64,000 nucleotides of DNA from an uncultured Gemmatimonadales bacterium (GCA_963798085.1 CAWCRS010000008.1:224001-288000); one strand, 5' to 3'; counted from the stretch's first letter, positions 15,344-47,357 are shown. Numbers and translations: made by a program. The notes: generated by a model not told the origin, from the sequence alone.

Positions 15344-16435
15344 GTGGACCCGATCGCATCCGAGGCCGTTGCCACCCTCACCACCGCCGTGACGTCGCTG
15401 CTGCCGCCTCCGGTGGATCCGTCCGTTCCACACGCCGTACTGGTCACGCCACTGCGCATTGCCACCACTGGGCTGGGCGGTTTCGTGGGTCTGAACCCGG
15501 ACCCCCAGGGTGAGATTTTCGGGCGGCGCATCCGGGCGAGAGTGGACGTGAACGTGGGCGCGTTGACCGCGACCGGACTCGATTCCGCGCTCGCTCACGT
15601 GACCAGCGCGGTGATGACGACGGGTCGCGAAGAGTTGTCGCAGCTCGGAATCCTGAAGCTCGGCGTGCTCGAGCTGGGTCCCCAGCCCGATGCCAGCGCC
15701 GCACCGCCTGCCGCCGCGCGCCGCGCCGTGTCGTTCAATGTGCTGTACGAATTCCTGAAGCTGCCCGTGCAGGCCGGCGGCGTCATCCAGACGATCCCGC
15801 TCGACATCGACAGCACCCTGGCGGTGAACGATCCGCGCGTGCTGCTGCGCGGGCCGTTCCTGCCTCCCTCGTTGGATCTCTTCGAAGTCTTCGACGACAA
15901 CGCGGCCACCACGGCGTCGCCTTCGGCATGGTCTTTCGACACGGCCGACGCGGCCATCATCCAGACGGCAGACATCACGGGTGGCGCAAACGCGCCGACG
16001 CCCGACAAGCCCGGAACGTACTGCGTGCTGCGCACCACGCCGGTGCGTCCACCGCTGCGCGACTTCACCATGGCGGCGGAGGTGCTCACTACCTCGCCGG
16101 GCGGCATCGGCATGGTCTTCCGCTTCGTCGATGTGAACAACTTCTATTTCGCGCTGCTCGACAGCCGTAACGGCTTCCGCATGCTGGGCAAGAAGGTGGC
16201 GGGCGTGTTCGGGGCGCTGCAATCCGGAGGTCTGGATGCGGCGGCGGGTTTCAGCGCGGGCACGCTCGTGCGCGTGCGTCTGGTGGCCCAGGGCGATGAG
16301 TTCCGCCTGCTGATCGACGGTCGCGGCGTGCTCGACGGCCGGGATGATGAGCTGGCGGCGGGCGGGCGCGTGGGTTTCCTGACACGTCATTGCACGGGCG
16401 CGCGCTTCTTCGACCTGATGCTCGTCCGGCTGTAA
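15344..16435 (+). CDS. Putative tail terminator/cap-like protein fused to a C-terminal ConA-like (DUF1080/lectin-type) beta-sandwich
   Basis: First gene, just before the sheath; GTG start after GGAG. C-terminal pattern GGIGMVFRFVDVNNFYFALL..VRVRLVAQGDEFRLLIDG..DDELAAGGRVGF..ARFFDL. The terminator role is inferred from position and alpha/beta pattern only. Confidence 0.5.
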   Translation: MDPIASEAVATLTTAVTSLLPPPVDPSVPHAVLVTPLRIATTGLGGFVGLNPDPQGEIFGRRIRARVDVNVGALTATGLDSALAHVTSAVMTTGREELSQLGILKLGVLELGPQPDASAAPPAAARRAVSFNVLYEFLKLPVQAGGVIQTIPLDIDSTLAVNDPRVLLRGPFLPPSLDLFEVFDDNAATTASPSAWSFDTADAAIIQTADITGGANAPTPDKPGTYCVLRTTPVRPPLRDFTMAAEVLTTSPGGIGMVFRFVDVNNFYFALLDSRNGFRMLGKKVAGVFGALQSGGLDAAAGFSAGTLVRVRLVAQGDEFRLLIDGRGVLDGRDDELAAGGRVGFLTRHCTGARFFDLMLVRL

Positions 16436-16522
16436 CGAATCGGCGCCCGTCCGCGGGCGAACCCGTCCGCGTCCGGCTGGCTCCCGGACGCGCGGCGATC
16501 ACTCCAGCGTGGGAGGCTGCAC

Positions 16523-17599
16523 ATGGCTGAGACTTTCACTCTTTCCGAGCTGGTCGTACCGGGGACGTACATCCGGGTGTCCGCGGAAGGGCTCATTGGC
16601 GTCGGCGGCATCTCGACCGGGAACATCGGCATTGTGGGAACCGCGGGTACTGTGGACGCCGAGACGCACATCCTCGGCGACTACCGCACGACCGGCGAGA
16701 CATTCGGCGCGTACGACGGCGCCAGCAACGGCAGCGGTACGCTGAATCTCACGCGGGCGCTCGAGATCGCCTACCGCAACGGCGGGCGCACCGTGTTTGC
16801 GCGCGCACTGGCGGCGGGCGCCAATGCGGCCGCGTTCTCCACCGCGTTCGACGAGATCATCAAGGAGGATGTCAACATCCTGATCGCGCCCGAGCTGTCC
16901 ACCAGCGATGCGCTCAGCGTGCTGGGCAGCGCCGTGGAGACGGCGGAGAATGCGGGTCGCGACATGATCGCCGTGGTGGGCTCCAATGCCAGCACCGTGG
17001 CCACCATCAACGGCCAGGTGCCCACCAACGATCGCATTGTCTTCACCGGTCCGGGCATCGTCGCGTTCAATGCGGCGCTGGGCGCCTCGGTCGCGCTCAA
17101 CGGCACCTACAGCGCCGCCGCCGTGGCCGGTCTGCTGAGCACGCTGTCGCCGCAGCAGAGCCCCACTAACAAGGTACTATCGGGTGTGGTGCAGCTGGCG
17201 CGGCGTTTCTCCTATGCGGAGAAGATCCAGCTGCTCAACGGTCGCGTGGCCGTGCTGGAGCAGCGCCAGGGCGTGCGCGTGGTGCGCGGCCTCACCACCA
17301 ATGACGGCGGCTTCCGCCAGATCACTACCCGCCGCATCACGGACTTTGCCAAGGCGGGCATCCGCAAGGCATCCGATCCGTTCATCGGCAAGCTGAACAA
17401 CCAGCGTGTGCGCAAGGCGCTCTACGGCGCCATCGACGGCTTCCTCACCACCATGCTGCTGGACGAGCAGCTCACCGGCTACACGCTCGAGGTCACGGCC
17501 TCGCGCCAGGACGAGATCAATGGCCGCGCGCTGGTGAACGCGGTGCTGCGTCCGACGTTCAGCATCGACTTCGTGGCGGTCACTCTGGTCCTCGAATAG
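16523..17599 (+). CDS. Contractile tail sheath protein (short, 358 aa)
   Basis: N-terminal PGTYI, AAAVAGL..SPTNK, VRVVRGLTT, RRITDF..FIGKLNN and C-terminal LRPTFSIDFVAVTL. GGAGG RBS. Confidence 0.93.
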   Translation: MAETFTLSELVVPGTYIRVSAEGLIGVGGISTGNIGIVGTAGTVDAETHILGDYRTTGETFGAYDGASNGSGTLNLTRALEIAYRNGGRTVFARALAAGANAAAFSTAFDEIIKEDVNILIAPELSTSDALSVLGSAVETAENAGRDMIAVVGSNASTVATINGQVPTNDRIVFTGPGIVAFNAALGASVALNGTYSAAAVAGLLSTLSPQQSPTNKVLSGVVQLARRFSYAEKIQLLNGRVAVLEQRQGVRVVRGLTTNDGGFRQITTRRITDFAKAGIRKASDPFIGKLNNQRVRKALYGAIDGFLTTMLLDEQLTGYTLEVTASRQDEINGRALVNAVLRPTFSIDFVAVTLVLE

Positions 17600-17613: not shown

Positions 17614-18108
17614 ATGGCGAATACGCGGGTGTACACGGGGGCAGATGGCTCGATCACACTCTCGGCGGGGCAGGGTGCCGAAGGCGACGCCGCTAACGCG
17701 GTGATCACGGCGTTCGACACCATCTCGGTGGGTCGCGTGCAGAACGTGCGCGTCGAGGTGCAGTCCGCCGTGAAGGCGTACCACGAGATCGGCCAGCGCT
17801 ACGCGACCGAGCTGCGCCCCGGCAACGTCACGGTGCGCGGCACGATCGGCCGCGCCATGATCAACGGCGCCATGCTGCGTCTGCTGCTGGGCGAGGCGGC
17901 CAATGGCCGGCCCAAGGCGAGCTGGGCGCAGCCTTCCTTCAACATCACGCTGCTCGCGGAAAACGCGGCGCAGCCGGGCGTGCGCAACACGCTCACGCTG
18001 CACGATGTGAAGCTGGAGTCGTGGGTCTACGCCATGCCCGAAGATGAATTCCTGGCGGAAGCGCTCACCTTCCAGGCGCTCTACGTCACCGTGGCGGATG
18101 AAGGCTGA
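17614..18108 (+). CDS. Tail tube protein
   Basis: 164 aa directly after the sheath. VGRVQNVRVEV..YHEIG..GNVTVRGTIGR..FNITL..TLTLHDVKL..EALTFQA matches the beta-rich tube pattern. Confidence 0.85.
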   Translation: MANTRVYTGADGSITLSAGQGAEGDAANAVITAFDTISVGRVQNVRVEVQSAVKAYHEIGQRYATELRPGNVTVRGTIGRAMINGAMLRLLLGEAANGRPKASWAQPSFNITLLAENAAQPGVRNTLTLHDVKLESWVYAMPEDEFLAEALTFQALYVTVADEG

Positions 18109-18581
18109 TGCTGAGCGCCGAGGAATTGCTCGCGGGCAGCGGGCTGGCGTACGAGGTGCGCCTGCCGCCGGAGGTATTGCGGCCGGGCGCGGGTGATGCG
18201 GCGAACGCGGGCGCGCAGACGGTGAAGCTGCGCCCGCTCACCGTGGCCGATCTCCAGCTGGTCACGCGCGCCGCCAGGGAGAGCGACACGCTGGTCGCCA
18301 CGCTCATGGTCCAGCGCGCGCTGATCGAACCCGCCATGACGGTCGTGCAGGTGGCGGGCATGCACGTGGGACTGCTGGAATTCCTGCTCGGCGAAGTCAT
18401 GCGCATCAGCGGCATGAGCGTGACCGAGCCCGAATTGCAGTCCGCGGTGGAGGCGCCGCTGGCGAAGGCGGCGCACGTGCTGGCGAAGGAGTTCGGCTGG
18501 ACACCGCCACAGGTCAGTGAGCTGACGCTGGGCCAGATCATGGTGCACCTGCAGATGCTGCAGCAGGAGGCATCACCTTGA
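18108..18581 (+). CDS. Tail assembly chaperone (G-like domain VKLRPLT fused in frame to a T-like FGWTP..ELT domain)
   Basis: Follows the tube with TGATG coupling. VKLRPLTVADL..ALIEP..VMRISGM, then LAKEFGWTPPQVSELTLGQ. Confidence 0.75.
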   Translation: MLSAEELLAGSGLAYEVRLPPEVLRPGAGDAANAGAQTVKLRPLTVADLQLVTRAARESDTLVATLMVQRALIEPAMTVVQVAGMHVGLLEFLLGEVMRISGMSVTEPELQSAVEAPLAKAAHVLAKEFGWTPPQVSELTLGQIMVHLQMLQQEASP

Positions 18582-19624
18582 GCCGCACGCCGCGCGAAGG
18601 CGGGTCCGAATCCATGCATATGGGCAACGCCGTGCTGCTGGCGCACGTCCGCCACGTGCGTTCGCTGCTGGCGCGGCTGCGCCAGCCGGACGCGCCCCTC
18701 TGGCGCCTGGCGGGGGATGCCGAGGCGCACCTGCGCGTGCTGACACCGCAGTTCGCGGCGCTCGAGGTGGACCCGTTCGCTGGCCTGCCGGCCGTGGCGT
18801 ACGAACAGCCCGTTGAGGGCGACGACGCACCCGCCCCCGTCCGGCGCGAAGTGGAACCGCCGTTGCCGCCGCCGCGTCCGGCGACGTCTTTGGAAGCAGC
18901 GGCCGAGCCTCTGCGTTCGGCGAACCCGGCCCGCGCCGGCGAGGTCGCGCCGAAGGGCCAACACGGTGTCAGAGGTGCCGTGCTGCCACTCTCGCCTCGC
19001 CGGCGGTCGCGCGCAACGGCGGCGGGCTCGGCGGGCAGTCGCGCGCACGCGCTCGGCGCCATCGAACCGCCCGCTCCTCCGGCTGCAGCCGCCCGGGCCG
19101 ACGCAGCAGGACCGCCAGCCGTGGCCGCTAATGTCGTGTCAGTAAGCGTGGAGAACGCGGGCGTTGTCGCGCAGCCGATGGATCTGGGTGCGCTGGCGGC
19201 GCGGGTGCTGGCGCAGGTCGCGGCAGAGAAAGCGCGCACGGCGCCGGCCGGGCCGGGCACGCGCGATCGACTGACACGGGCTGCGCCGCGGTCCGCGAGC
19301 GGGCCTGCTGCAGAGGCGGCGCTGCGCGGCGCCACGCTGCGCCCCGCCGTTCCCCGCAGCGTCGCGCGCGACAGGCGAGCCGGCAATGTACCGTCGGCCG
19401 ACGCGAGTCCCCGGGCAGCGCTGCTGCCATCATTGCCCGATGCCGCGCGCCCTGTGGCGGCGCCGCTGGCCGCACCTGTCGACGGGGCTGCGCGCGAGCC
19501 CGGGTTCTACTTCGACCCGCTCGCGCCGCGTGCGGCGGTGGCGGACGAGGAAGAGCTGCTGGCGGAGCGGGTCGCGCGCGTGCTGCACGAGCAGGCCCGC
19601 CGCCAGGGAGTGGACCTGACGTGA
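18578..19624 (+). CDS. Pro/Ala-rich low-complexity tail-associated protein with short helical caps
   Basis: Overlaps the chaperone stop. Disordered middle; C-terminal EEELLAERVARVLHEQARRQG helix. Start uncertain. Confidence 0.55.
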   Translation: MSRTPREGGSESMHMGNAVLLAHVRHVRSLLARLRQPDAPLWRLAGDAEAHLRVLTPQFAALEVDPFAGLPAVAYEQPVEGDDAPAPVRREVEPPLPPPRPATSLEAAAEPLRSANPARAGEVAPKGQHGVRGAVLPLSPRRRSRATAAGSAGSRAHALGAIEPPAPPAAAARADAAGPPAVAANVVSVSVENAGVVAQPMDLGALAARVLAQVAAEKARTAPAGPGTRDRLTRAAPRSASGPAAEAALRGATLRPAVPRSVARDRRAGNVPSADASPRAALLPSLPDAARPVAAPLAAPVDGAAREPGFYFDPLAPRAAVADEEELLAERVARVLHEQARRQGVDLT

Positions 19625-19657: not shown

Positions 19658-22600
19658 ATGGCCACGGTACTCGAGCAGATCCAGGCTGCGCTGTCCGGCA
19701 ATGACGCGAACGTTCGCGTCAGCGCGCAGGCCGGCAACCTGCAGGGCATCGGCGGCCTGGTCGCGGGTCTCGCGAAGAGTCCGCCCGCGCAGATCACGAA
19801 CCTGCAGCGCGCCTTCGCCGCGCTCGAGCTGCCCGACTTCCCCCTGGGCGATTTCGTCTCGCGCATCAGTGACGCGCGCGCGGCCCTGCCCACGGATGCG
19901 GGGGGCGCGCTCAGCGGCGTGCTGGGAGATCTCTCGAACATCGAGCAGGAGTTCAGCGGCGGCATCGCGTCGTCGCTGGCCAATGCACTCGTCGCCTTCG
20001 AAAAGGTGCAGGCGCTGGCCGACATCCGGTTCCACTGCACGAATGGCGCAGGCAGTGCACCGGCGGGCGGCGGCAGTGCGGGCGGAGCGGGCGGAGCGGG
20101 CGGCGCGGGCGGCGCGAGTGGCTCAGGCGGTGCCGGTGGCACGGGCAGCGCCACGGCGCCGCCGCCCACACCCATGGCGCTCGCGGTGGCGCAGGCTGAC
20201 AGCGTGTTCGACCGACTGCCGGTGCCCTTCGATCTGCGCGCGCTGCTGCGCTTCCTGCACGACAAGACAGCGTTCCGCCGCGAACCGCTGTTCCCGGCGG
20301 TGCTGCCGCTGTTCGACGATCTGCGCGATCCGCTGGACACGCTCATGGTGTGGGAGTCGCTGACACCGGCGCAGGTGCTGCAGCAGATCGCGACGGCGCT
20401 GCAGGATGCGAACACGCATGTACGCACGGGTGTGGAGCGCACGCTGGGTCCGCTGTTCGCCGACCTCGATGGCTTCATGGCCACCATGCCGGCGGCGGAC
20501 CTCGCCCGCATCGCGGACCGCATCACCATCCGTCTGGGCGAGCTGCGCGCCGCGGTGCAGGCCGGCAATGTGGGCGGCACAGGCGGGGCCGTGAGCGAGA
20601 TCGGTGCGCTGCTCGACGAATACGATGCGCTGCGCCCCGCACTGGCGCCTCGCATCAATGCGGTGCCGGCGCTGCGTACACGTCTCGCCGAAGTGGCGGA
20701 GGATCTGGACCTCGGCATGGCCAGCATGGTCTCGATCCTGAAGCCGGGCGGCGGCGCGCTCACTCGCCTGGCCATGCCGCGCTTCGAATGCGCTGAACCG
20801 GCTGCAGATCTGGGCGCAGGGCATGGCCGACTGGCTGCACAATGTGGCCGGCGCCATTGACCTCTCCGCCATCCAGGGCCCCATCGGCACCATCGCCGGC
20901 CGCGTCGAGTCCGTGGCCGAGGGGCTGCAACAGGGCATTACCACGATCACGGTGGACGTGCAGAGCGTGTTCACGACCGTGCAGTCCGTGATCGACACGC
21001 TCGATCCTGCGCAGCTGCAGGCGGAGGTGCAGGCCGCAGTCCAGCGTTTCCGCGACGAGATCATTGCGCGTGTCAGCGCCCTGGTCGGCCCGGCGCGCGC
21101 GGCGGTGCTTCAGGCTGTGACCGCGATCGATCAGGCCGTCGGTGCATTCGATCCGGGCAATGTCATTGCGGCCATCTCCGCTGCCATCAATGCGCTGGCC
21201 GGCGTGCTGGGCGATGGTCCCATCGGCCAGGCCATGAGTGCCGTGCACGATGGCCTCGAAGCGGTGGCGAAGCAGCTGACGGCGCTCTCCTTCACACCCA
21301 CCGCCGACTCCGTGGTGAGCGTGATCGACTCCCTCCGATCCACGCTCGAGGCCATCGATCCGGCTCTGCTGCCCTCGCCGGCAGCGGATGCGCTCAAGTC
21401 CGCCGCATCCGTGCTGCCGGGCGATCTCGAGCCCATCACGGATCCCATCATCGACAGCTTCGGCGAGATCGTGGACAGCGGGCCGACCCCGGTTCTCGAG
21501 CAGGTGCGCGATGCGCCCGCGCAGTTGCTCGAGGCCGTGCGCAGCTTCGATCCCGAATCGCTGGTCGGCGATCAGCTGACGGGACCGTTCAATAGCGTGC
21601 TGCGCTCCATGGAGCAGTTCCGGCCGAGCGATCTGCTGAAGCCAGTGGGCAAGGAGCTGGACGCCTTCAAACAGCAGCTGCGCAAGGCAGCCAGTCCGGG
21701 GCGCGCAGCGCAGGCGCTGCAGGCACCGTTCGACGCGCTGAAGCAGACGCTCGCGAACTTCGATCCCAATGCACTGGTGCAGCCGCTGCAGGGGGCGCTC
21801 GCAACCGTGCGCGACGGCCTGCTCAAGGTTGTGCCGGTGGATGAGACGTTCGCCATCATCGACGAAGGTCTTGCCGCCGTCCAGCGCGTGCTTGACACCA
21901 TGGACGCGGTGGTGCGAGTCCTGCGCCGTGTGCACGAGGCTGCGAATTCGCTCGTCGGTGTGCGCGGACAGCTGGACGCGTGGGTGAACAATGTACTGGC
22001 GCGCGTCGAATGGCATTACGGACACGTCGAGCCTGGTGCCGTTGCTGGACAACCTGCGCACCGCGCTGGATGGCACGCGCGCGTCGGCGATCGGTCCGCG
22101 TTTCGCCGCGGGCACGGCCACGGCGCGTGCTGCGCTCGACAGCGTGAACGGCACGACCCGTCTCGCGTCGCTGATCCAGGCGCATCGTGCCATCCCGCGG
22201 CCCGCGCTGCAGGCGCTGCCGGCCTCGGCGCAGAAGACCGCACTGCAGGCGGTGCTGGATCGCTTCGATCCACTGCTGCCCGCGTTCGGTTCGCCATGGC
22301 AGCAGCTGGGCGCGCTGCGCCAGGGACTCGTCGAGGGTGACGCCGAGCTGCAGGCGCTGCTGCCCGTGTGGGACGATCGCTTCCACTTCGCGGGCGGCTC
22401 ACTCGACGAGCTGCGTCAGGCCCAGCCCACCACGGCGCAGTTGCGCGCGTTCGCGCAGCAGGCGCTCGAGACGCACTTCGTCGAGCCCATTGCCAACGCC
22501 CTGTCGTTTCTCGATCCGGCAAGAGAGTTCCTCGATGCTCTGCTGACTCCCTTCGAGGATCTGATCACCACGCTGCACGCGCGCCTGGCCGCACTGCTCA

Positions 22601-23121
22601 CGGGCCCGGCATCACTCACGGCGATTCGCGATGGGCTGGGCCGCATCGACGACCTGGTGAAGGGACTGGACCTCGAGTTCCTGCGCACCAGCCTGCACAC
22701 GCTGTTCGACGACATTCGTCACAAGCTCGACGACGTGAGCCCGCAGAAGCTGGCGGAAGCGCTGGACAGGAGCTTCGCGGCGGTGCTGGACGGCATCACG
22801 ATCGATCTGATCCTGCCGCCCGCCAATGTGAAGCAGATCGACAAGACATACAGCGACGTGGTGGAGAAGCTGCGGTTGCTCGACCCGTCGCACATCGTGA
22901 ACAATGTGGTGAAGCCGCTCTTCGAGCAGAAGGTGGTGCCGCTCGTCGACAAGTTCGACGTCTCGCCCTTCATCGACACGATCAACGATCGCCTGGGTTC
23001 GCTCGACGATGAGCTGCGCGCGGAAATCGGGCATGTGAATCAGGCGTACATCAAGCTGCTCGCGGCACTGCCCTCCGGCAGTACGCCGAGTGCCAGCGTG
23101 TCCGTCTCGGTAGCCGCATGA
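19658..23121 (+). CDS. Long amphipathic alpha-helical protein A (~1153 aa after repairing +1 insertions at ~20787 and ~22009); tape-measure-like
   Basis: Three consecutive ORFs (19658, 20823, 21991) align end to end with the intact paralog at 26217-29669 (e.g. REPLFPAVLPLFDDLRDP / NEPLLPAVIPVWDDLRDP; DSGPTPVLEQV / DSGPVPVLEQV). The 3464 nt span minus 2 is a multiple of 3. Confidence 0.8.
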
Positions 23122-23146
23122 GCAGACGAGCGGCAGGGCGGTGCGC

Positions 23147-25615
23147 ATGGTGATGGGCGAAGTGCTGACGCAACCGCAGCGCATGCGACGCGCAACCGTC
23201 ATGGATCCGGGCATTGCCCTGATCAATGACCTGACCAGCCTGGCCACACGACTCGCGCAGGACGCGGAACAGAGCGCTCAGCTTGCGCAGGTTGCACGCA
23301 GTGCGCTGGAAGACGCAGTCCGCACACTGGTGCAGCAGCGGCTGGGAGCGCTGAAGTCGGTATTGCCGAAGCTGGCGGACTGGCTGCTGCGCGTGCTGCG
23401 CGCGACCACCGGCATCGGGCCCGAGCTGATCCCCACGTCTTCCCCCGCGGGTGTGCTGTCTCTGATCAGCCAGCTCATCGACACGATGGCGCAGGCGGCG
23501 CAGAACGGAAATGCCGCGCGCATTCAGCCGTACGTCGCCGAGCTGCTGGGCATCGTGCAGCACGATCTGGGGTTGAGCCTGCCCGCGCTCGAGACTGCCT
23601 TCTGGGGCGTGATCGACTCCATCATTGCACGTCTCGAGGCACTGCCGCTCGAGGCGGATCGCCGCGAGCGCGAGAACCGGCTGGACACGATTCGCGCACT
23701 GCGCCGCATGCGCCGGCTGGTACGCGGCCGGTTCCCGCTGCCCGCACTGGATGCCGATCGCATAGCTGATGCTCTGGCGGCAACGCTGCGCACCATCGAC
23801 GCGGCCGCGCTGGGCCGCGCGGCGCAGTGTGTGGCCCAGGCGATCGAGAAAGTAGCCGATGCGGGCCAGGCCATCGAGCAGCTGGTGCCGCTCGGCGCGC
23901 TGACCGGGTTCCGCAGCCTGGGCGCGGCTGCCGCGGTGGCCAGTGGGGAGACCTACTGCTGGTACGCCAGCTGGCTGTATGAGGAGGACGTGATCATCAA
24001 TGCGGCGGGCACGGAGATCCGGCGCGGCGACACCGTCATTGCCAGCGGCACGGGCCTGACCTTCGCCAGCATCCCCGACTTCACGACGGCCACGCCACAC
24101 TACACCTTCAACTGCGTCAGCCTCGCCACCATGGAGACGCTGACCAACGTCGTGTTTGTGCTGGCCGACGCCATCATCGTGGTGTGCCATCTGGTGTCGA
24201 TCGAAACTGGCGACGTCGCTTCCAATGCCCTGAATGTGGGCGCCTTCGGCTTCCTGGGCGTCATGGGCAAGCTGGTGGGCAGGAGTCCGCTCGCCTCCAG
24301 CGGTGTCGAGGACTGGGTCTACCCCCTGGCGGCCTCGTTCGCGGGCTCGTTCCAGGGTATTCACACGAAAGCGTCGGGCGGCAACATCTTCCTCATGTGG
24401 GTGACGCTGTTCCTGCCCGACTTCATCGAGGCGGTCATCTACAAGCAGGTCTCGCTCATTGCCCGCGACCTGGTGCTGTCGCTGCTGACACTGATCAACT
24501 ACGACGGGCCGCTCGAGTCGTCCGGCTCACCCGATACGCGCCCGCTCAACCGCATTCACATCGACGGCGTGGCCTGGGTGGGCGAGTGGCTGGGCAGTCT
24601 GGTATTCATGACGTTCTATCCCCGCGAGGAGTACGCGCAACCCTTCGCCTCGGGCGGGCACGCGGCCAAGTTCTTCCTGTTCTGGGACCTGTTCCTTAAC
24701 AACCTGTTCTACGTGCTGGGCCGGCTGGTGGGCTGCATCCTGGGCATGTCGGTGGCGCAGGTGTTCGACTTCGACACATGGGTGAAGCCCATGCCGCTCA
24801 AGCTGCTGCTGCTCAATCCGCTCATGTTCATTGTGAGCCTGTACATGGACAAGGAAGGGGACACGAAGGACGGACATTACAACCCGACCGGTGCGGAATA
24901 CGCCGGTTACCCGGACAAGGCGTCGTCGCCCTATCAACTGCCGTTCCCGAAGGACAACACGTACTACCTGGTGCAGGGCAACCAGGGATTCTTCAGTCAC
25001 CACCACCTCAATTTCGATCAGCAGTACTCGTACGACTTCTCCATGGACCAGGACGATCCCATCCTGGCCAGCCGCCCGGGCACGGTCGTCGATTATTTCG
25101 ACTGGATCAAGGACAACACCAATCCGGACACAACGGATATGACTGCGGCGACGACGGAAGCGACCGCGTCCGGCTTCCTCGTACCCGGCCAGACCACGTC
25201 CGACAGCTGGAACTTCATTGCCATCCGCCATGATGTGGACGATGCGGGCGCCGCGCTCCCGCCGGATAACACGCACGACAAGGCGGCGGGCGGCAGCGTG
25301 GTGACGACGTACGCGATCTACGGTCACGGGCGGAAGGGCAGTGTGCGCGATGCATTCCAGGCGAGGGGCGTGGCCGCCAACGCGATCATCGGTACGAAAG
25401 TCAAGCAGGGCCAGCGCATCATGCGCTCCGGTGACACGGGCGTGAGCTTCAACAATCACCTGCACATCATGGTGCAGGAAGGGCCGGCGAGCACGACGGC
25501 GCCGCCGGTTTCGCGGGGCGCGCTGTCGCAGCCGACGCTCCCGTTCGTGTTCAAGGACGCGGGCGTGCCAAAGCACCTGGACTGGTACGAGTCGAGTGTG
25601 ACGGAGGTAGTCTGA
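23147..25615 (+). CDS. Helical N-domain + multi-pass hydrophobic region + C-terminal M23 metallopeptidase, paralog 1
   Basis: QGNQGFFSH..YSYDF, ILASRPGTVV, YAIYGH and VKQGQRIMRSGDTGVSFNNHLH. Several hydrophobic segments; no signal peptide. Confidence 0.82.
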   Translation: MVMGEVLTQPQRMRRATVMDPGIALINDLTSLATRLAQDAEQSAQLAQVARSALEDAVRTLVQQRLGALKSVLPKLADWLLRVLRATTGIGPELIPTSSPAGVLSLISQLIDTMAQAAQNGNAARIQPYVAELLGIVQHDLGLSLPALETAFWGVIDSIIARLEALPLEADRRERENRLDTIRALRRMRRLVRGRFPLPALDADRIADALAATLRTIDAAALGRAAQCVAQAIEKVADAGQAIEQLVPLGALTGFRSLGAAAAVASGETYCWYASWLYEEDVIINAAGTEIRRGDTVIASGTGLTFASIPDFTTATPHYTFNCVSLATMETLTNVVFVLADAIIVVCHLVSIETGDVASNALNVGAFGFLGVMGKLVGRSPLASSGVEDWVYPLAASFAGSFQGIHTKASGGNIFLMWVTLFLPDFIEAVIYKQVSLIARDLVLSLLTLINYDGPLESSGSPDTRPLNRIHIDGVAWVGEWLGSLVFMTFYPREEYAQPFASGGHAAKFFLFWDLFLNNLFYVLGRLVGCILGMSVAQVFDFDTWVKPMPLKLLLLNPLMFIVSLYMDKEGDTKDGHYNPTGAEYAGYPDKASSPYQLPFPKDNTYYLVQGNQGFFSHHHLNFDQQYSYDFSMDQDDPILASRPGTVVDYFDWIKDNTNPDTTDMTAATTEATASGFLVPGQTTSDSWNFIAIRHDVDDAGAALPPDNTHDKAAGGSVVTTYAIYGHGRKGSVRDAFQARGVAANAIIGTKVKQGQRIMRSGDTGVSFNNHLHIMVQEGPASTTAPPVSRGALSQPTLPFVFKDAGVPKHLDWYESSVTEVV

Positions 25616-36796: not shown

Positions 36797-37298
36797 GTGG
36801 CGCAGAACGCGAACCTGCTCACGGACGTGCGCCTGGAGCTGCAGGACCACCGCCTGCGACCCGTCTATGTCGCGGCGCAGCGCGAAACGCACGTGCCCAC
36901 GCGGCCCGATCGCTTTCTCGATTTCAGATGTCACCACCGGTCGCGACAATCTGGCGCAGGCCATCATCATGCGGCTGCTGACGCCGCGCGGCGAGCTGGA
37001 CGCGCTCGGCCACCCGGAATACGGCTCGCGACTGCACGAGCTGATCGGCCGCACTAACACGGACACAACACGCAACCTGGTCAAGCTCTTCATCCTCGAG
37101 GCGCTGCAGCTGGAGCCGCGCATCGAGCCGAAGCTGACCGTGATCGTGACGCCCGCGGACGAGAAGCCGCCCGCCGTGGGCAAGGGCGCACGCAATGTGA
37201 CGCTGGCGCCGCGCGTCAATGTCGAGATTTCCGTCACGCCGGTCGGCGAAACCGCTGTCGTGACGATCGGACCCTTCACGCTGGAGCTCGAACCGTGA
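36797..37298 (+). CDS. gp25/GPW-like baseplate wedge protein; apparent +1 frameshift at ~36926
   Basis: GRDNLAQAIIMRLLTPRGEL..HPEYGSRLHELIG..EALQLEPRI. The N-terminus MAQNANLLTDVRLEL is in the adjacent frame. Confidence 0.88.
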
Positions 37299-39061: not shown

Positions 39062-41826
39062 TTTGCCCGCGCTGATCGACCGGCTGCCATCGCTCTACCG
39101 GCCGGAACCCGACGACGGCACACTGCTGGCCACACTGCTGGCCAGTGTCGCCGCCGAGCTGGATGCTGCACGCGATGACACCAGCATGCTGCTGCCCGCG
39201 CACTGGGTGCTGCACGCGGATCGCGCGACGTTCGATCCCTGGTTCACACGCCGCCGCCAGCGGGCCGGGCTGCCCGCACTCGTTCCCACGGACCTGCTCG
39301 ATTTCGACGATGCGCGCAAGTTCCTCATCGCGGTGAAGGATGCGAACACACCGCTCACCGAATTCCTGCGCGATTCGCTCAGCAGCACGCTGCAGGCCGA
39401 GCTGGATGCGTGGGATGACGCCCTGCAGCCGCCGATCGTGCTGCAGCGCCACGCGCTGGATGCGCTGACCCGCCTGGCCCGTGGCGCGCTGCTCTACAAT
39501 GGGGCACGCTTCGATGGCGTGACCCTGTCCGCGGCAACTGTGGCGCGAGCCGAAGCGAACCCGCCGGGCGTCGAGCGCACTGCCGTGAACGTGCAGCTGC
39601 TGCTCGAGGCGTTCCCCGCCCAGCTGCGGGCCGCGTCGCTGGACCTGGCGTTCGTGCGCGATCTCGGGCGGCTGGGCGCACTCGTGCCCGTGGTGCCGTG
39701 GCGGGAACCGCTTTCGCTGCGCGAGACCGTCGAGGCGTTCCGCATCCGCATGCAGCGCATGGTGGCGCTCTACCGGCACGGCCTGGGCACCGTGAACGCA
39801 CTGCGCTCCGTTGTCGAGGCCACACTGCCCGTGGATTTCGCGCAACCCGCAGAGCTGCGCGATCGCCCGTTCGCCATCGAGGAGTTCACGCCGCTCGCCG
39901 TGACGGCGGTGGCCGCGCCCACCAATGGCCCGCCCGACAACCTAGTCGGGCCGCTCATGCGCTGGGTGATCGAGAATCCCGGCCTGAGCGCGGCGGCGCC
40001 GACGCTTCTCGTCACCGGACTCTCGCCCGCTGCCGGGATTGCCGCCACCTCCCACCCGCTGATCGAGCGGATCGGTGGTGGCAGCGGGCGCAAACACGTT
40101 GCTATCGGCTATGCCGGCACTGTGGCCGCCAGCGACACACTGCGGCTGCGTCCGACGTACGCCACGTGGACGCTCGGGCAGGCCGGACTCCTGCGTGCGG
40201 ATCACCTGCCGGATGGCGAGACACCCGCCGACCCCACCGAGCCCGGCGCCGCTGCGGCCGTGGCCGGTGCGCCTGCCGGCATTGTGGCGCTGTTCCAGAC
40301 CTCCGACGGCGTGCTCTGGGCCGCGGCCGACAATGGCGCCACGCTGGCCCGCTTCGATGGCGTCGCCTGGAACAGCTTCGCCTCCGGCCTGGCCGCCATC
40401 CGCTGCTTCGCCGAGCACGATGATGCGCTGCTGCTGGGTACAGCCGCTGGCCTGCTGCGAACCCCACTGTTCCCGGCACAGGGCGAAGACCCGACACCGG
40501 CGCCGGTTCCGGGCTTCGCGAACATCGCGGTTCGCAGCATCACGCCGCCAGAGGGTGGCACCGAACGGTGGCTGGGCACGGACACCGGCGCGCTCCACTG
40601 GGATGGCACCGGCTCGCCTGACATTGTCGTGCTGGGCGGCGGCGCGGGCATCAGCACCCCCGTGCACGCCCTCGCGCTCGATCCCGGTGGCGCCATCCAT
40701 TTCGCCTGTGACCTGGGCGTCTTCCAGTACCAGCCGATGCGGGCCGCGTGGTACTGGTACGCGGGCGATGCCTTCACCGAACAGACACCCGAGTGGCGGG
40801 CATTCAGCGCGACTGCCGACGGCACACCCGGGACCGGGAACGTCTTCCTGCCGGCCGTGCTGGATATTCGTCGCGGTCCCAATGCATCGCTCTGGCTGGC
40901 CACCGCGAATGGCATCGCACGCTACGTCGCGCTCGAGGTCGACAGCGGCAGCTATACGACCTGCCTCGAGGCGTTTCCCGACCTGTGCGCCGGGCCGGTC
41001 ACACAAATGCTCGAGGACGCGCGCGGCGGCATCTCGGTTCTGCACGGAGCGCGGGCTGCTGCGCTTCGATGGCCGCGACTGGTACCAGCGGCGAGGCGAG
41101 GCGTGGGTGCACCTGGGCCGCTCCAATGTGCTGCCCGGCGCAGCGGCGAGGCCGCGCGGCAGCTGGCGTTTCGACCGCGCCGGCAGCCGCTGGCAGCGCT
41201 TCGATACCGGCAGCGGCAGCTGGCTGACGCCCGTTACCCAGCTGCGCACCACGGGCGAGCCGGCGGTGACCCACGTGATGGTGACTGACCACGTCGTCGG
41301 CGACCTGGGCAGCTTCAATGGCGCCAGCTTCACGCACGCCTCGGACGTGGCCGCTAACGACGTGTTCATGCACGTCAAGCCGGCCGAGGACCGCATTGTC
41401 GTGGGCGGCATGCCGTATCTGCCACGCGTGCCCCCGGGCACCTCCGCGTGGCGCTATCTGGAGCGCGAGCCGGCCAATCTGCAGCCGCCAGCCGCGGGCG
41501 ACCGGCCCGCATGGAGCACCGAGGGACGGCTGTTTCCGCCGCCGCCCGCACTGGACGCACCCTACGCGGGCCGCCATGACGTGGACACGCCCGCCGACGG
41601 TCATTTCGACCAGGCCGTGTTTTCCTTTGATCCGGCCGCGCGCGTGACGTTCATCTTCGAGCCGCGCCGGCCCTGTGCGGTCCTGGTCCGGTTGTATCGA
41701 CGCGCCACTGATCCCGCTTACGACCCCGCTGTGCTGGACCGCGTCTGGGAAGGCATCCAGCGGGTCCGGCCCGCGGGTGTGCGCACCCTGCTTGCCGTGG
41801 ACGAGACCATCGTCAGGAGGAGCTGA
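39054..41826 (+). CDS. gpI-like baseplate wedge protein with inserted beta-propeller (~923 aa after repairing a +1 insertion at ~41035)
   Basis: LIDRLPSLYR N-terminus, FRIRMQR..GTVNALR and C-terminal IQRVRPAGVR. About seven repeats resembling W-x-G/A-T-x-x-G-L-x-R. Confidence 0.75.
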
Positions 41827-41828
41827 AC

Positions 41829-43331
41829 ATGCCGTTAGCCGCGAACCTGGGCACCAAGGCGCCCGGCCAGCTGATCAAGTCGGAAGACTGGAACGCACTG
41901 GTCGCCGGCGTGAACGCCATCGAAAGCGCACTGGATGCGCGCATCACCAGCGTGGAAGGCGCCGTGACCACGCTGGGTACACGCATGAACGCCGCCGAAG
42001 CGAACATCGGCGGACTGCGCAGCGATGTCGACGACATCCTCGCCAGTACCTTCCGTATCACGCTGGCGACGGCAAAGGTGAACTACGCGCTGGGCGAGCT
42101 GGCCGAGATCACGGCCACCGTGCGTGATGCCCGCGGCCAGATTCCCGCCACCATCGCCACGGCGCCGCCCTCCGTGGATTTCGTGACCACGTGGGGCAAC
42201 CTCAAGGCCGCGCCCGGCTTCGTTTCGGTGGCCGGCGAGGCGGAGCGCAGCATCTCGGTGCAGTGCAATGCGCAGGGCGAGGCGCGGGTGCGGCTGTCGT
42301 CGGAGATCCTGCACGACATGACCAACGACATGGAGCTGGAGTTCAGCAATTTCCTCGATACCAGGGTGGGCACGCAGAACCTGAGGTTTGCGGATGTCGT
42401 GCTGAGTTCGAGCACACCTTCGGATCAGGGCGTCGCCACCGCCTACAAGGCCGCGACCGCCAGCTACGACAGCCCGCAGACCGGCAACTTCCGCGAGTAC
42501 GTGGACAGCTATTACGTGGCTAACAGCACGCGCATCGCGGGCAAGATCGCGCCCAGCATCACGAATCAGTGGCGCCAGCAGTGGCGCGACCACCACATCA
42601 CGGTGCTGGCTTTCGGCAAGGCGGATGGCGATCCGCGCACGCCGGACAGTGGCCGCGGCGCCAATGCCATCCAGGTCACGTTCCGCGACTGGATCGGCTC
42701 CTGGATGATCATCGACTACATTCCCGGCGCCGCCCAGCGCGTGCCCCAGTACATCAGTGTGCTGCAGGGCGCGATAACCCTGGATTACGAGCAGTCCGCC
42801 AACCTGATGCGCGATGCCGTGCAGCAGCGTGTGCAGGGCTTCGGCCTGCTGGGCAAGACGCGCGAGTACGAGGCGCTGCGCGGTGCCCTCGACCAGGTCA
42901 ATCCGCCCCAGCCGGTGGCGTTCATGGCACAGCTGCGGCAGTCCATGAAGTCGGCGGTCACACTGCAGCAGTCCTTCCAGCAGGCCCAGCTCACGACACC
43001 GGGCGCGGCCGCGGAGGAAGTGGCGCTCAACGCCTTCACCAGCACGGCCGTGCGCGCCGATTCGGCCGTCGCCGGCGTGAACGCGCAGGTGCTGCAGGTG
43101 CAGCAGGCGGTGCAGCTGGCGCAGCAGAACATCAGCTCGCTGGGCAGCCGCCTCGATGCCACGGCGGCAACCGGCGGGCAGATCGATCAGCTGCGCGCCA
43201 ACCTCACGACCGTCACGGACCAGGTGCATGCACTCCGCGCACTGGGTGATCCCACTGTGGTCAGTGACCGGCTCAACTTCATCTCGTCCCTCGACAACCG
43301 GCTCACCCGCATCGAGCGTGGAGGCACCTGA
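41829..43331 (+). CDS. Putative tail fibre/fibre-attachment protein 1 (Ig-like core, coiled-coils)
   Basis: N-terminal PGQLIKSEDWN anchor-like motif, a coiled-coil, an Ig-like strand block and a C-terminal coiled-coil. Lies after the baseplate genes. Confidence 0.55.
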   Translation: MPLAANLGTKAPGQLIKSEDWNALVAGVNAIESALDARITSVEGAVTTLGTRMNAAEANIGGLRSDVDDILASTFRITLATAKVNYALGELAEITATVRDARGQIPATIATAPPSVDFVTTWGNLKAAPGFVSVAGEAERSISVQCNAQGEARVRLSSEILHDMTNDMELEFSNFLDTRVGTQNLRFADVVLSSSTPSDQGVATAYKAATASYDSPQTGNFREYVDSYYVANSTRIAGKIAPSITNQWRQQWRDHHITVLAFGKADGDPRTPDSGRGANAIQVTFRDWIGSWMIIDYIPGAAQRVPQYISVLQGAITLDYEQSANLMRDAVQQRVQGFGLLGKTREYEALRGALDQVNPPQPVAFMAQLRQSMKSAVTLQQSFQQAQLTTPGAAAEEVALNAFTSTAVRADSAVAGVNAQVLQVQQAVQLAQQNISSLGSRLDATAATGGQIDQLRANLTTVTDQVHALRALGDPTVVSDRLNFISSLDNRLTRIERGGT

Positions 43332-45268
43332 TGAGCAGTCGCCTGACCATTGCCGTGCAGGACGTGTCGCCGGCCAATGCGCAGCGCGTCCTGAACTTCC
43401 TCAACGCGGCCACCAGCGCGCAGCAGATCGCTGATACCATCGAGCTGCCCGGCGAGCTGGACATTGGCGTGCATCTCGCGCAGCGCCTGCTGGCGCGTCG
43501 CACACAGCTGGGCGGCTTCACCACGCTCCAGCAGGTGGCCGCTGTGCCGCTCATCGGACCCAAGCGCTTCACCGACATCATCATTTCCCTCACCGCGCAG
43601 CGCCCGAGCGGCGAGCCGCCCTCTCCCATCGACGCGCTGCAGCAGCAGCTGGATGCATTGCGGCGCCGCGTCGATGCCGGCAGCGCCGGTGCTGCCGCCG
43701 GGCGTCGTCGCCTGACCCTGTCCGCCGTGGGGCCGCACACTTTCCTGGGCCAGCCGCTGTCACTGGTGGCCACGCTGACGGAGGACGAACAGCCTGTTAC
43801 CGACGTGCCCATTGCCTTCGTTGCCACGCGTGGCGAGCTGAGCGCGCGCGACGGCTACGATGCCTGCCGCGGGCATTTCATCACCGCGCGCACCGGCATC
43901 GACGGCATCGTGCGACTCACGGTGCAGACGCGCACCACGGAAGCACTGTCGCCCCTGCAGCAGGATGCGCTGCTGTCAATGCTGGGCCTGCTCGATGCCG
44001 GCGCGCTGACACCCGCGGATGTCCAGGCGGGGCTGCAGGCCATGGCGCAGCAGTATGCGTGGGAAATCAATGTTCCCTTCCGTCAGGCCGTCGACATCTA
44101 CGTGCGCGATTATCACCCGCAGCTGCTCGACACCGTCAATCTGGTGGACAACCTGAGCGCATGGGTGTTCCAGGACTCGGCCGTGCTCGCGTTCGCGCCA
44201 GCCGAGGGAACGGGCGAGCAGGGCAGCTCCGTGGCGGCCACGGCCACGCTCCAGGTGCGCGCCACCGACTGGATCCCCGCGTTCCTCGAGACCTTTGTGG
44301 CGCTCACGCGGCAGAACAGCACGCTCACCGCCGAGCTGCGCGACATCTCGCTGACCTCGCCGGACCCGAGCGCCATGGTCAACGCGATGTACGACAAGGC
44401 TGGCGCCTATGTGGCATCGCGCTACGGCAAGGTGGGCGCGTACGTGGGGCGCAAGGTGGCCGAGTCGTCCATCCGTGGCTTCCTGGACCAGGACCTGGCC
44501 AGCCTGCCGCTGGACACGCGCATCGACCTGTTCCCCGCGCTGGATGTGGCCTCGCGCACGATCGCACACGCCGATGTCGGCGTGATCCAGGGGCTGGTCA
44601 GCACGCGCAAGGACATCACCCAGGACGTGGATCGCAAGATCGGCAAGGGCACGGTTACGCTGGGCCTGCTCAACACGCGCGTGGGCAAGGCCGAGGCCCA
44701 GCTGACGCAGGTTCCCGATAACACCGCATTGCTGAACCTGCGCACCGAAATGCTCAACGCCGTGCAGACCTCGCGCAACGATCTGACGCTTGCCATTGAT
44801 GCCACGCGCAAGGACCTGACCGTCGCCATTGACACCACGCGCAAGGACCTGACCACTTCGGTGGACGCGGCGCGCAAGGACTTCACGCTCGGCCTGTCGC
44901 AGACGAATGCGGACATCACGAAGCTGCGCACCAATGTGGACGCCATCAAGCCGCGACTCAATGCGACGCTCTCGCAGGCCGACCTGGACACGGCACTGGC
45001 CGACAAGGTCACCAACACACAGCTCAACAGCGCGCTTGCCGACCGTGTAACCACCACACAGATGGACACGGCACTGGCCGATCGCGTTACCACCACGCAG
45101 ATGAACACCGCCCTGTCGGACCGGGTGACCACGGCGCAGCTGAATGCCGGTCTGGCCACGCGCGTCGACACGGCCACATTCAACAGCTTCAGCGGCAACG
45201 TGAATCAGCAGTTCAAGACCGTGAACACGTCGATCACCACGATCAACGGCCGGCTGCCGCGGCAGTGA
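43331..45268 (+). CDS. Putative fibre protein 2: N-terminal helix-hairpin-helix domain, Ig-like core, C-terminal repeat coiled-coil
   Basis: FLNAAT..DIGVHLAQRLL..GGFTTLQQVAAVPLIGPKRF is a ComEA-type HhH pattern. 11-aa and 13-aa tandem repeats near the C-terminus; TGATG coupling. Confidence 0.65.
   Translation: MSSRLTIAVQDVSPANAQRVLNFLNAATSAQQIADTIELPGELDIGVHLAQRLLARRTQLGGFTTLQQVAAVPLIGPKRFTDIIISLTAQRPSGEPPSPIDALQQQLDALRRRVDAGSAGAAAGRRRLTLSAVGPHTFLGQPLSLVATLTEDEQPVTDVPIAFVATRGELSARDGYDACRGHFITARTGIDGIVRLTVQTRTTEALSPLQQDALLSMLGLLDAGALTPADVQAGLQAMAQQYAWEINVPFRQAVDIYVRDYHPQLLDTVNLVDNLSAWVFQDSAVLAFAPAEGTGEQGSSVAATATLQVRATDWIPAFLETFVALTRQNSTLTAELRDISLTSPDPSAMVNAMYDKAGAYVASRYGKVGAYVGRKVAESSIRGFLDQDLASLPLDTRIDLFPALDVASRTIAHADVGVIQGLVSTRKDITQDVDRKIGKGTVTLGLLNTRVGKAEAQLTQVPDNTALLNLRTEMLNAVQTSRNDLTLAIDATRKDLTVAIDTTRKDLTTSVDAARKDFTLGLSQTNADITKLRTNVDAIKPRLNATLSQADLDTALADKVTNTQLNSALADRVTTTQMDTALADRVTTTQMNTALSDRVTTAQLNAGLATRVDTATFNSFSGNVNQQFKTVNTSITTINGRLPRQ
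44984..45178 (+). repeat. Five 39-nt (13-aa) coding tandem repeats
   Basis: LDTALADKVTNTQ / LNSALADRVTTTQ / MDTALADRVTTTQ / MNTALSDRVTTAQ / LNAGLATRVDTAT. Confidence 0.85.
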
Positions 45269-45281
45269 CCAGGGCAGATCG

Positions 45282-47357
45282 ATGAACCTGCAGTCGGTGG
45301 CGTTCACGGGCGCTGACGCACTGGCGATGACGCTCTTCGCGTTGCGTTCGCCCGTCACGGTCAACGGCCGTTCCGTCTTCCGCCGCGTCTTCGGCCTGCG
45401 CATCAGCTCGGGTGGGCTGGCCGACGGCATTCGCTTCGCTGCCGCGGCCTCGCATTTGGCGCTGACCTTCGGCGCCAATGACAACTTCGATGTCCGCGCG
45501 GCCGGCATCGCCAATGTGCAGGCGAAAGGCGGCAGCACACTCATCGTCGAGTTGCCCGCGCCCGTGCGCGTGCGCGGCGCGCACCTCACGGGCGGCGTCA
45601 CCTCGGACGCCTTCACAATCGACCTGTTCCGCATGGATGGCGATGAGCTGGCCGGCGATCCTACCAAGTCGTTCACCAACAACGGCAATGTCAGTGGCGA
45701 TTTCACGGACCGCCGCTTCGCGCTGCGGCTGCGCAAGCAGGACGGCAGCTTCGTGGCCATCACACCGGCCAACCTGACGCAGCTGCGCGTGCTCGGGCTG
45801 CCCACCGCCGCGCGCGCGGGCCTTGCACCCGCCGGCCAGGACCCGGCCAGCGCGCTGTTCTTCTTCAACCTGCCCGGCGTGGTGGGACAGAACACGAACA
45901 GCCCGTCCGGCAATGCCGACATCGGCGCGCCGCTGGCCGCCGCGCTGGAGCAGCAGATCGGCGCACTCGAGCCGCCGTTCCCCGATCCGCTCGACCTGCT
46001 GCTGGTCGTGGAATCGGATGCGCCCTGTCAGCTGCAGGTCAACAGCTTCGCCCTGCCGCTGACCCTGGAACGCACGCATTTCCGCGCCTTGCTGCTGCGT
46101 GCCGAGGACGTGACTGACCCGGTCGCCTTCCTCACCCGCCTGCACGATGGATCGGCGCCACTAACAGCCTATTTGCGCAGCCATCTGGCGCCGCCCACAC
46201 TGGCCGCGATCGAGCGCACCATCGGTGGCAGGGCGCCGGCGCGCGTGATCGAGGCCGTCGCGCGTGACCTGAACAGCCTGCTGCAGGCGGATGCCGTGTA
46301 TGCGGCCACGCGCTTCCAGGGGATCAGCCTCACGCCGGAGACACTGGCCGCGGCGCAGGCAGGCGCCACGGGCACCAGGCGTACGCGCCTGAATCGCACA
46401 CTGCTCGAGGAGGCGTTCCCGGGTGTGCTGGCGCCCATCCCGCCATCCGGCAGTGACGAGAAGGAAACGCTGCGCGCGCAGGGCGCGACCGCGACACTCG
46501 AGGTGCACGTCGAGCTGCCCCGCGCCGCGCTGATCAGCGCGGCCACGCTGCGCATGGAAGCCAGTCTGCGGGGTGATGCACCCGGTGGCGCCCGCGGGGA
46601 GGACGGCGCTGACGCAGGCGAGGATGGTGGCGGTGCGAACGGCGGGGAGTGGCAGGCGAGCATCCCGGACACCACAGGCGTCGCGGCCAATGCCACGCGC
46701 GCCGTCGCCCGGCGCTTCCAGCCGGAGGCCGCGCTGCACGCCAGTGGCATGGCCCTCGCCCTCGCCGGCATTGCCCCGAGCAATGAGCTGACGGCGGAAA
46801 TCCGGGCCGAGGAAGGCGGAGCGCCCACAGGCCGCACCGTCGCCTCCGGTAAGGTCGTGTTAGAAGCGCTCGACGACCCGGCCTGGGTCCATTTTCCGTT
46901 CGCCGCCGCGGCCGTGCTGCAGGCGAAGCCGTACTGGATCGTGCTGCGCGCCACGCAGGGGGCGGTATTGTGGCTGGCGGATCAGCAGCCCGCGATCACA
47001 CGCGTGGGTGACCCGGCGCCCAGAGGCTGGACCGACCGCGGCGGCTTCAGTGACATCGCGCCGCTGCACCAGATCTGGGAGCGCGGCGCAGCGCCGCGGG
47101 CAGTCGCCGGAGACGGCGGCAGCGGCAGCAGCGGCCAGGATCTGAGCGGACGACTGCGCGTGAAGATCGGCGACATGATTCTCACACCCCTTCCAGCCCA
47201 GGGCAGGGCAGTCACCGTTGACATCACCGCTGCCCTGGCCAGCTGGCTCGCGGCGCAGCCGGCGTCGCCGCCCATCGTCACTGTGCCCATCGCGATTGCC
47301 GCACTGGGAAAGGGGACCGTCACCGTGTATCCGCCGGAGATACGCTACAGCCTCTGA
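45282..47357 (+). CDS. Hypothetical multi-domain beta-rich protein, last gene of the tail locus (possible receptor-binding/fibre-tip protein)
   Basis: 691-aa ORF, 13 nt after the previous gene. Shares a ~110-aa domain with the gpI-like protein. C-terminal beta-sandwich (AVARRFQ..GAPTG..WVHFPF..YWIVL). Confidence 0.6.
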   Translation: MNLQSVAFTGADALAMTLFALRSPVTVNGRSVFRRVFGLRISSGGLADGIRFAAAASHLALTFGANDNFDVRAAGIANVQAKGGSTLIVELPAPVRVRGAHLTGGVTSDAFTIDLFRMDGDELAGDPTKSFTNNGNVSGDFTDRRFALRLRKQDGSFVAITPANLTQLRVLGLPTAARAGLAPAGQDPASALFFFNLPGVVGQNTNSPSGNADIGAPLAAALEQQIGALEPPFPDPLDLLLVVESDAPCQLQVNSFALPLTLERTHFRALLLRAEDVTDPVAFLTRLHDGSAPLTAYLRSHLAPPTLAAIERTIGGRAPARVIEAVARDLNSLLQADAVYAATRFQGISLTPETLAAAQAGATGTRRTRLNRTLLEEAFPGVLAPIPPSGSDEKETLRAQGATATLEVHVELPRAALISAATLRMEASLRGDAPGGARGEDGADAGEDGGGANGGEWQASIPDTTGVAANATRAVARRFQPEAALHASGMALALAGIAPSNELTAEIRAEEGGAPTGRTVASGKVVLEALDDPAWVHFPFAAAAVLQAKPYWIVLRATQGAVLWLADQQPAITRVGDPAPRGWTDRGGFSDIAPLHQIWERGAAPRAVAGDGGSGSSGQDLSGRLRVKIGDMILTPLPAQGRAVTVDITAALASWLAAQPASPPIVTVPIAIAALGKGTVTVYPPEIRYSL

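Follow-up and report, generated by a model that had tools for sequence, protein, structure and literature searches.

We report that the 32-kb operon at positions 15344–47357 of a 64,000-nucleotide stretch of DNA from an uncultured Gemmatimonadales bacterium (hereafter the window, C8:224001-288000; source genome 6.2 Mb, 90% complete) belongs to a real, widespread and apparently undescribed lineage of headless contractile injection systems (CIS) with a swappable carrier-plus-enzyme cassette, as judged from sequence. The operon resembles an injection system, yet the membership tests that we applied place it in none of extracellular CIS (eCIS), type VI secretion systems (T6SS), tailocins and prophages. 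Taken as a whole, we lean, at slightly better than even confidence, toward a domesticated, horizontally spread CIS separate from eCIS and T6SS, which would deliver enzymes paired with a large helical protein, A, to bacterial envelopes.

Gene content and spread of the operon

With a codon model fitted to the genome, all 20 genes of the operon scored as coding; they are co-oriented on the + strand and flanked by permease and metabolic genes. The sheath (PF04984, PF17482), the gpV OB-fold (PF04717), PAAR (PF05488) and baseplate J (PF04865) exceeded the Pfam cut-offs, and the hub (E 2e-13) and gp25 (E 1e-15), under these cut-offs, were supported by PHROGs. The co-oriented tail operon seen in an initial annotation of the window is therefore real, and its labels for these six genes stand, whereas its chaperone, initiator, gpI-like and fibre-like labels are putative assignments by position and motif, for which no hidden Markov model passed. 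The genes are as follows.

15344..16435, + strand: g01, putative cap or tail terminator (N-terminal ~155 aa) with a CBM66-like beta-sandwich; cap role by position
16523..17599, + strand: short contractile sheath, 358 aa; PF04984 and PF17482 over cut-off, phrog_279 E 3e-24
17614..18108, + strand: tail tube, 164 aa, on the Phage_tube_2/XkdM side and not T4-gp19/Afp1, from distant profile relatives
18108..18581, + strand: putative tail assembly chaperone; follows the tube, relatives 41–79% identical, no HMM match
18578..19624, + strand: g05, candidate disordered tape measure; Ala/Pro/Arg-rich, poorly conserved
19658..23121, + strand: A1, second copy of helical protein A, spread over three frames as three consecutive pieces, 42–47% identical to A2
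23141..25615, + strand: B1, predicted M23 cargo with a helical N-domain, a hydrophobic middle that is also helical, and the peptidase at the C-terminus; B3 paralog with zinc-ligand motifs
25620..26213, + strand: putative tube initiator with a poly-Pro linker and an amphipathic helical tail, without LysM; relatives 51–78% identical
26217..29669, + strand: A2, acidic protein of 1,150 aa, all-alpha, whose amphipathic helices of ~23 residues are spaced by Pro
29695..32205, + strand: B2, predicted M23 cargo paralog, 52% identical to B3, motifs intact
32213..34663, + strand: B3, predicted M23 cargo paralog; predicted template modelling score (pTM) of the model 0.72
34667..35794, + strand: baseplate hub, gpD/gp27-like; PF05954 E 2e-5, phrog_1887 E 2e-13
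35791..36402, + strand: gpV-type spike; PF04717 over cut-off
36412..36795, + strand: PAAR tip; PF05488 E 5e-13
36797..37298, + strand: gp25/sheath initiator, frameshifted near 36926; phrog_975 E 1e-15
37295..39061, + strand: baseplate J, 588 aa; PF04865 E 1e-19
39054..41826, + strand: gpI-like wedge protein into which a beta-propeller is inserted, with a frame break near 41050; putative gpI role by position and terminal motifs
41829..43331, + strand: F1, conserved appendage protein with coiled-coil ends; coiled-coil noise matches alone
43331..45268, + strand: F2, F1 paralog with a coiled coil; N-terminal HHH_3-like segment in the window copy
45282..47357, + strand: F3, conserved last gene, no known family

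A sheath search of GTDB genomes yielded 51 loci out of 172 pattern matches. The sheath is 48–82% identical in 50 of them, the remaining one being a distant Haliangium locus, and the synteny that the initial annotation proposed to look for in other genomes was found: gene order is common to these 50 loci, whose record titles name at least 11 phyla. All 50 have the tube after the sheath, and g01 precedes the sheath in 44, four of the six misses being contig ends. J was present in 28 of the 29 genomes searched; a related-locus search seeded with J returned no loci, and downstream halves were taken from the carrier genomes instead. We retrieved 26 family regions surrounding J or lying downstream of it; all contain F1 and 23 reach F3 (the other three stop at a contig edge), and no gene past F3 is common to more than two of them, which places the operon end at F3. 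The tube is represented by about 1,260 clusters at 90% identity. None of the 120 tube clusters listed carries a Pfam domain or a name other than 'hypothetical', and tube relatives were found neither in IMG/VR nor in INPHARED (best E 0.9). Because only 3 of 60 taxonomic relatives carry a family locus, the distribution points to horizontal spread. No description of this gene set was found in the literature searched, although dbeCIS/eCIStem locus tables and preprint supplements could list individual members.

Two further observations concern the limits of the family. The Haliangium locus (L052 and L079, from one MAG, or metagenome-assembled genome) is a distant sister with a 565-aa sheath, a gpI-like gene, a second J-domain gene and homologs of the initiator (E 4e-19) and F3 (E 4e-19), which suggests a wider superfamily in Myxococcota. 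In two Chloroflexota loci (L009:5579-6604, L011:8667-9677), an unrelated gene of ~340 aa without a Pfam or PHROG match takes the place of g01.

The absences reported in the initial annotation were borne out. Pfam, PHROGs and TIGRFAM-type scans of the operon open reading frames (ORFs) gave no capsid, terminase, portal, integrase, holin or AAA match, none to TssJLM, ClpV or TssB/C, and no lysis genes; LysM and DUF4157 were equally unmatched in the operon. The 90%-complete genome gave no Terminase_6N or Phage_portal match. Of 195 ORFs listed in the flanks, 110 were scanned against PHROG together with four others, and 0/114 proteins fell in the head, lysis or integration classes at E<=1e-12, a threshold at which small holins can be missed. 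An amidase (L063) and an SLT protein (L050) are single neighbors that are not conserved.

Four frame breaks, overlooked in the initial annotation, interrupt the window copy: two in A1 (near 20780 and 22000), one in gp25 (near 36926) and one in the gpI-like gene (near 41050). The L048 and L050 loci are also broken, and in the collections of phages and plasmids the sheath finds its closest relatives among large myophages and phage-plasmids, as might be expected of a tail left over from a prophage or of a decayed element that no longer functions. We nevertheless consider such an origin highly improbable, given the sheath identity and the order fixed across phyla, the lack of tube relatives in the two viral collections and the absence of head genes from the scanned flanks and the genome. 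Moreover, of 111 unrelated permease copies in the same assembly (255 kb), 11 also change frame, which corresponds to ~1.4 expected breaks per 32 kb. The gp25 frameshift is likely an assembly error because one independent contig from run X1 (269 bases long, depth 3) is without the extra base at 36926; X1 contigs offer near-identical coverage at the gp25 site only, not at the A1 or gpI sites.

Relation to eCIS, T6SS and phage tails

The same genome encodes a canonical lineage-II eCIS (C1:80828-104405, L081) with a gp19-type tube, Pvc16_N, an Afp15-type ATPase, DUF4157, CIS_tube and two J-like genes, and a T6SS (C4:49900-90000, L082 and L083), giving three contractile systems in total. Both had escaped the initial annotation, and the Afp15-like ATPase that it proposed to seek in the genome lies within the eCIS. 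The available text of PMC6899500 describes eCIS and T6SS as rarely co-occurring. Operon proteins matched neither system at E<=1e-3, except gpV against VgrG, and the initiator was also unmatched to the CIS_tube protein on C1. The Afp15 WHD domain (PF22977) is absent from the operon and occurs in 7 of 28 carrier genomes, never adjacent to the locus; use of the C1 ATPase in trans as a general need was ruled out by the 21 carriers without a PF22977 match, many of which are incomplete.

In plasmid records, the C1 sheath finds 132 matches, including the Afp, Halogeometricum and Streptomyces systems, whereas the window sheath finds 24, all Bacillota. A sheath tree of 24 rows (L048 dropped as truncated; pyocin, PBSX, diffocin and T6SS sheaths absent) united six eCIS sheaths in a 100/100 clade excluding the family, whose place among phage sheaths the tree did not resolve. 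This clade, together with the lack of head genes beside the orthologous loci, upholds the distinct capsid-less CIS lineage proposed in the initial annotation. The best PDB matches of J are phage wedge proteins; J scored 20 bits against TIGR02243 (cut-off 156) and gave no tblastn match to the eCIS J genes on C1. The tube did not match PF06841, for which the genome's only match lies in the C1 eCIS, and hhalign gave a probability of 0.2% against the gp19-type tube of that system. Distant members of the tube profile carry PF18906/PF09393 (Phage_tube_2/DUF2001), while the tube itself had no direct Pfam match and its profile found nothing in PDB.

Among the eCIS criteria, Afp8 (whole or split), Afp9, a sheath and the lack of a capsid are all found in the operon. 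As described in the available text of PMC6899500, dbeCIS additionally requires an Afp1/5-type tube and Afp11. The family lacks such a tube and would therefore go unseen by this screen, although its own tube forms about 1,260 clusters and its loci come from at least 11 phyla. The same text reports split afp8 in eCIS IIa, IIb and IIc, and the separate hub and spike, which the initial annotation had singled out as unusual, are thus shared with eCIS.

The cargo slot and protein A

In loci long enough to show it, a slot between the initiator and the hub holds protein A plus one or two large variable genes. The partner is an M23-type B in 17 loci and in the window, an NHL-propeller protein in 11, a subtilase (S8; 1,480–2,590 aa) in four and a metallophosphoesterase-like protein in one; behind the NHL cargo there is often a second protein whose N-terminus is conserved and whose C-terminus varies. 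The window carries an expanded slot, in which A1-B1 is inserted ahead of the initiator and A2-B2-B3 follows it (A1/A2 42–47% identical, B1/B2/B3 38–52%). The 15-kb cassette of the initial annotation does consist of paralogs, but as a trait of the lineage it fell away: the expansion is peculiar to this genome, and the family feature is the two-gene slot of A and cargo. A second slot family, constant at the N-terminus and variable at the C-terminus, resembling polymorphic toxins and in some cases bearing peptidoglycan-binding or immunoglobulin-like domains, precedes the hub in L086, L088, L089, L090, L092 and L093.

The N-domain of B is helical, its middle part is helical and hydrophobic, and its C-domain resembles LytM/lysostaphin. 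In the structure model of B3, residues ~590–800 match LytM/lysostaphin (Z 10–10.7; root-mean-square deviation 2.7–4.2 over 121–142 residues). The zinc ligands H618, D630, H765 and H767 are invariant in 16/16 rows, and the HxxxD and HxH motifs both occur in 14 of 17 B rows, the other three being cut by locus ends. The M23 domain scored under the Pfam cut-off, and a fold search of the N-terminal and middle domains gave no assignment. The model and motifs support an M23 peptidase fold and a predicted wall-cutting function, consistent with the wall-degrading cargo suggested in the initial annotation. One B-type cargo (L007:17339-21085) has an OmpA-like domain inserted mid-protein.

Homologs of A are 1106–1172 aa long in 32 cases and 15–45% identical to A2. 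The A2 model is all helical, with a predicted local distance difference test score (pLDDT) of 77; fold searches returned generic helical matches only, with template modelling scores (TM-scores) by query <=0.08, and unnamed clusters in the Atlas. We compared cargo types with trees of 29 rows (L051, L024, L047, L012 and L045 left out as incomplete). The A tree requires 3 cargo-type changes, the fewest possible, against a shuffled mean of 11.1, with 0/200 shuffles as low, whereas the core tree (sheath, tube and chaperone) requires 10 against 11.0, with 48/200 as low. The initiator tree partly tracks cargo (7 changes; shuffled 13.8), and the hub, sheath and F1 trees do not. In L014, the initiator, A and cargo have moved and been inverted as one unit, and the g05 interval stays between the chaperone and the hub. 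Cys~128 of A is present in 18/18 M23-type rows and in 0/12 rows with other cargo, and Cys227 of B is invariant; because the M23-type A proteins form one clade, this pattern counts as a single event and is only a lead.

A tailocin-like killer, in which A would be a true tape measure and trans-envelope conduit, B a tail lysin and killing due to membrane puncture, would account for the great length of A, which is constant, and for its all-helical, repeat-like make-up. Weak BFVD matches of A include tape-measure and minor tail proteins, the relatives of J and the sheath are myophage proteins, and a cyanophage ejection protein carries an M23 domain. However, these BFVD matches have TM-scores <=0.08, A comes after the initiator and is swapped with the cargo while g05 keeps the tape-measure position, the subtilase, NHL and phosphoesterase cargos do not serve wall penetration, and a lysis cassette is not conserved. 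We judge this explanation unlikely.

A self-directed or cytoplasmic CIS, as in Streptomyces, seems a shade less probable again. Its particles would stay in the producer, and the payload would drive the cell's own lysis, wall remodelling or particle release in place of holin and endolysin. None of holin, endolysin and immunity genes is conserved, and a cytoplasmic, self-lysing CIS is described in the available part of PMC12998442. Regulators also lie directly upstream of the operon: sigma54-dependent activators in five loci (L005:7780, L007:7686, L021:2293, L043:7492, L049:4674) and SARP/BTAD proteins in two (L006:7768, L008:7876; two scanned from a three-member cluster). A sigma54 promoter motif was not enriched upstream of g01 (3/44 vs about 1 expected), and neither a sigma70 site nor a terminator was found. 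Against a self-directed role, the three conserved appendage genes, the propeller and the lectin domain suggest binding to an external surface, and polymorphic swapped cargo fits conflict. Moreover, no conserved membrane adaptor gene was found and no strongly hydrophobic segment in the hub, J, gpI, initiator or F1–F3, so that retention or anchoring in the cell, raised in the initial annotation, gained no support.

The remaining genes add detail to this picture. The C-terminal part of g01 matches a levanase carbohydrate-binding module profile (E 8e-5), and the N-terminal part occurs alone in many relatives; no sequence or profile match to Pvc16_N was found, a sequence-level result compatible with remote structural homology. 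A conserved C-terminal motif of g05, ..EQARRxGVDL, is seen in relatives (regular-expression match in 30 of 50 loci, some truncated), and the chaperone-to-initiator interval that g05 occupies spans 313–514 codons in 34 loci. For the initiator, a weak PHROG match (E 7.5e-4) was the sole hit, its profile search giving noise. The gpI-like gene is intact in relatives (786–1040 aa) and its propeller matches at E 8e-40; one F2 homolog matches a tail-fibre PHROG (E 2e-6); and F3 received no Pfam or PDB assignment (its profile gave noise) and matched only unnamed Atlas clusters. A segment of ~110 aa is common to the gpI-like gene and F3 (39300-39630, 46100-46430; 35% identity), in some relatives only. 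Directly after F3, single loci carry a caspase-like protease (L062:14766), an amidase (L063:13298) or a trypsin-like protease (L069:10816), possibly extra cargo or release factors. Outside the operon, the window contains MacB/FtsX-type permease paralogs (190-2538, 8787-11375, 12578-15013, 54331-56736; 111 copies >=1.8 kb genome-wide), some of which adjoin genes that we take to be PadR-like.

Proposed mechanism and comparison with known systems

We propose that the sheath and tube polymerize on a hub-gpV-PAAR-gp25-J-I baseplate, that disordered g05 measures tail length and that g01 caps the tail. A would act as a cargo-specific carrier or scaffold for its cognate enzyme, and the two would be built in at the baseplate end during baseplate and tube assembly, probably via the helical tail of the initiator. 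No Afp15 ATPase would be needed because A and the enzyme are, in this proposal, incorporated during assembly. F1–F3, the gpI propeller and the CBM66-like lectin domain of g01 may bind a surface, whereupon contraction would deliver the payload into the bacterial envelope. There the M23 domain of B would cut peptidoglycan cross-links and its hydrophobic helices may contact the membrane; the two A and three B copies may widen the payload set of this strain.

Several observations weigh against delivery by a separate lineage. The nearly fixed length of A (1143 +/- 14 aa) fits a ruler equally well, J, gpV and the tube cluster slightly by cargo (5, 10 and 4 of 200 shuffles, respectively), and the co-travel of A with its cargo could be plain linkage of adjacent genes. 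No common loading signal was found because the NHL and S8 cargos lack the helical N-domain of B, and cargos of 1,300–2,600 aa, if folded, would exceed the tube lumen. Most antibacterial effectors have an adjacent immunity gene, and no small immunity-like ORF adjoins B in the window gene calls. In the approximately unbiased (AU) test, the family and eCIS as sisters were not rejected (p-AU 0.21), and the best PDB sheath matches, all weak, include eCIS sheaths ahead of diffocin (E 0.04). Most carrier genomes are incomplete MAGs. Finally, four frameshifts against ~1.4 expected lie at the upper edge (Poisson about 0.05, calculated by hand), and the window copy may be decaying.

With more reserve, since we place it somewhat below even odds, we suggest that the family may be a further major CIS branch beside eCIS, T6SS and tailocins, arising independently from a large-myophage tail and using ATPase-free loading, with a helical carrier of ~1,140 aa docked on the initiator to bring exchangeable enzymes of 800–2,600 aa to an otherwise constant syringe. 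If A is a cargo carrier, it would represent a new route by which very large enzymes are loaded onto a contractile syringe without an ATPase, and the natural swaps would mark the module boundaries. The cultured carriers, Hahella ganghwensis DSM 17046, Paracoccus sp. S-4012 and Nodosilinea spp., make the family directly testable.

Among known systems, eCIS lineage II (dbeCIS IIa–IIc), as described in the available text of PMC6899500, shares with the operon a headless contractile tail, a single sheath, a split hub and spike, PAAR, gp25 and J, the lack of a classical tape measure and cross-phylum spread. The operon differs in lacking an Afp1/5-type tube, Afp15, an Afp16/Pvc16_N match, LysM-Afp7 and DUF4157, in a J far under the TIGR02243 cut-off, in a sheath outside the eCIS clade and in its slot of A and cargo. 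The Streptomyces davawensis CIS, likened here by description only from the available part of PMC11126660, belongs to a cross-phylum group in which the effector co-purifies with the tube initiator and spike, with a concept of tape-measure-like cargo; its effector is a DUF4157 nuclease, whereas the operon has no DUF4157 match.

In the phage and plasmid collections, the sheath and J matched best, at 23–33% identity, to large myophages and phage-plasmids (0305phi8-36, pBtic235-like, G, Myrna, YS40, HRTV-25, Kayvirus 812). The operon has no head or replication genes, and the fetched tail regions of these elements gave no match to family profiles for the tube, A, B, F1 and gpI. Diffocin, PBSX and R-type tailocins share a sheath of about 355 aa, an XkdM-side tube, a short J and a separate hub and spike with the operon, which departs from them in having no conserved lysis cassette, no single long tape measure with a lytic domain and no LysM gene, and in its swappable multi-domain enzymes and cross-phylum spread. 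In T6SS effector-adaptor cassettes, a cognate partner gene travels with polymorphic cargo beside the spike genes, much as A does with its cargo; the operon is distinguished from them by the lack of a membrane complex, ClpV, TssB/C and an adjacent immunity gene, and by an A protein that matches none of the known adaptor families.

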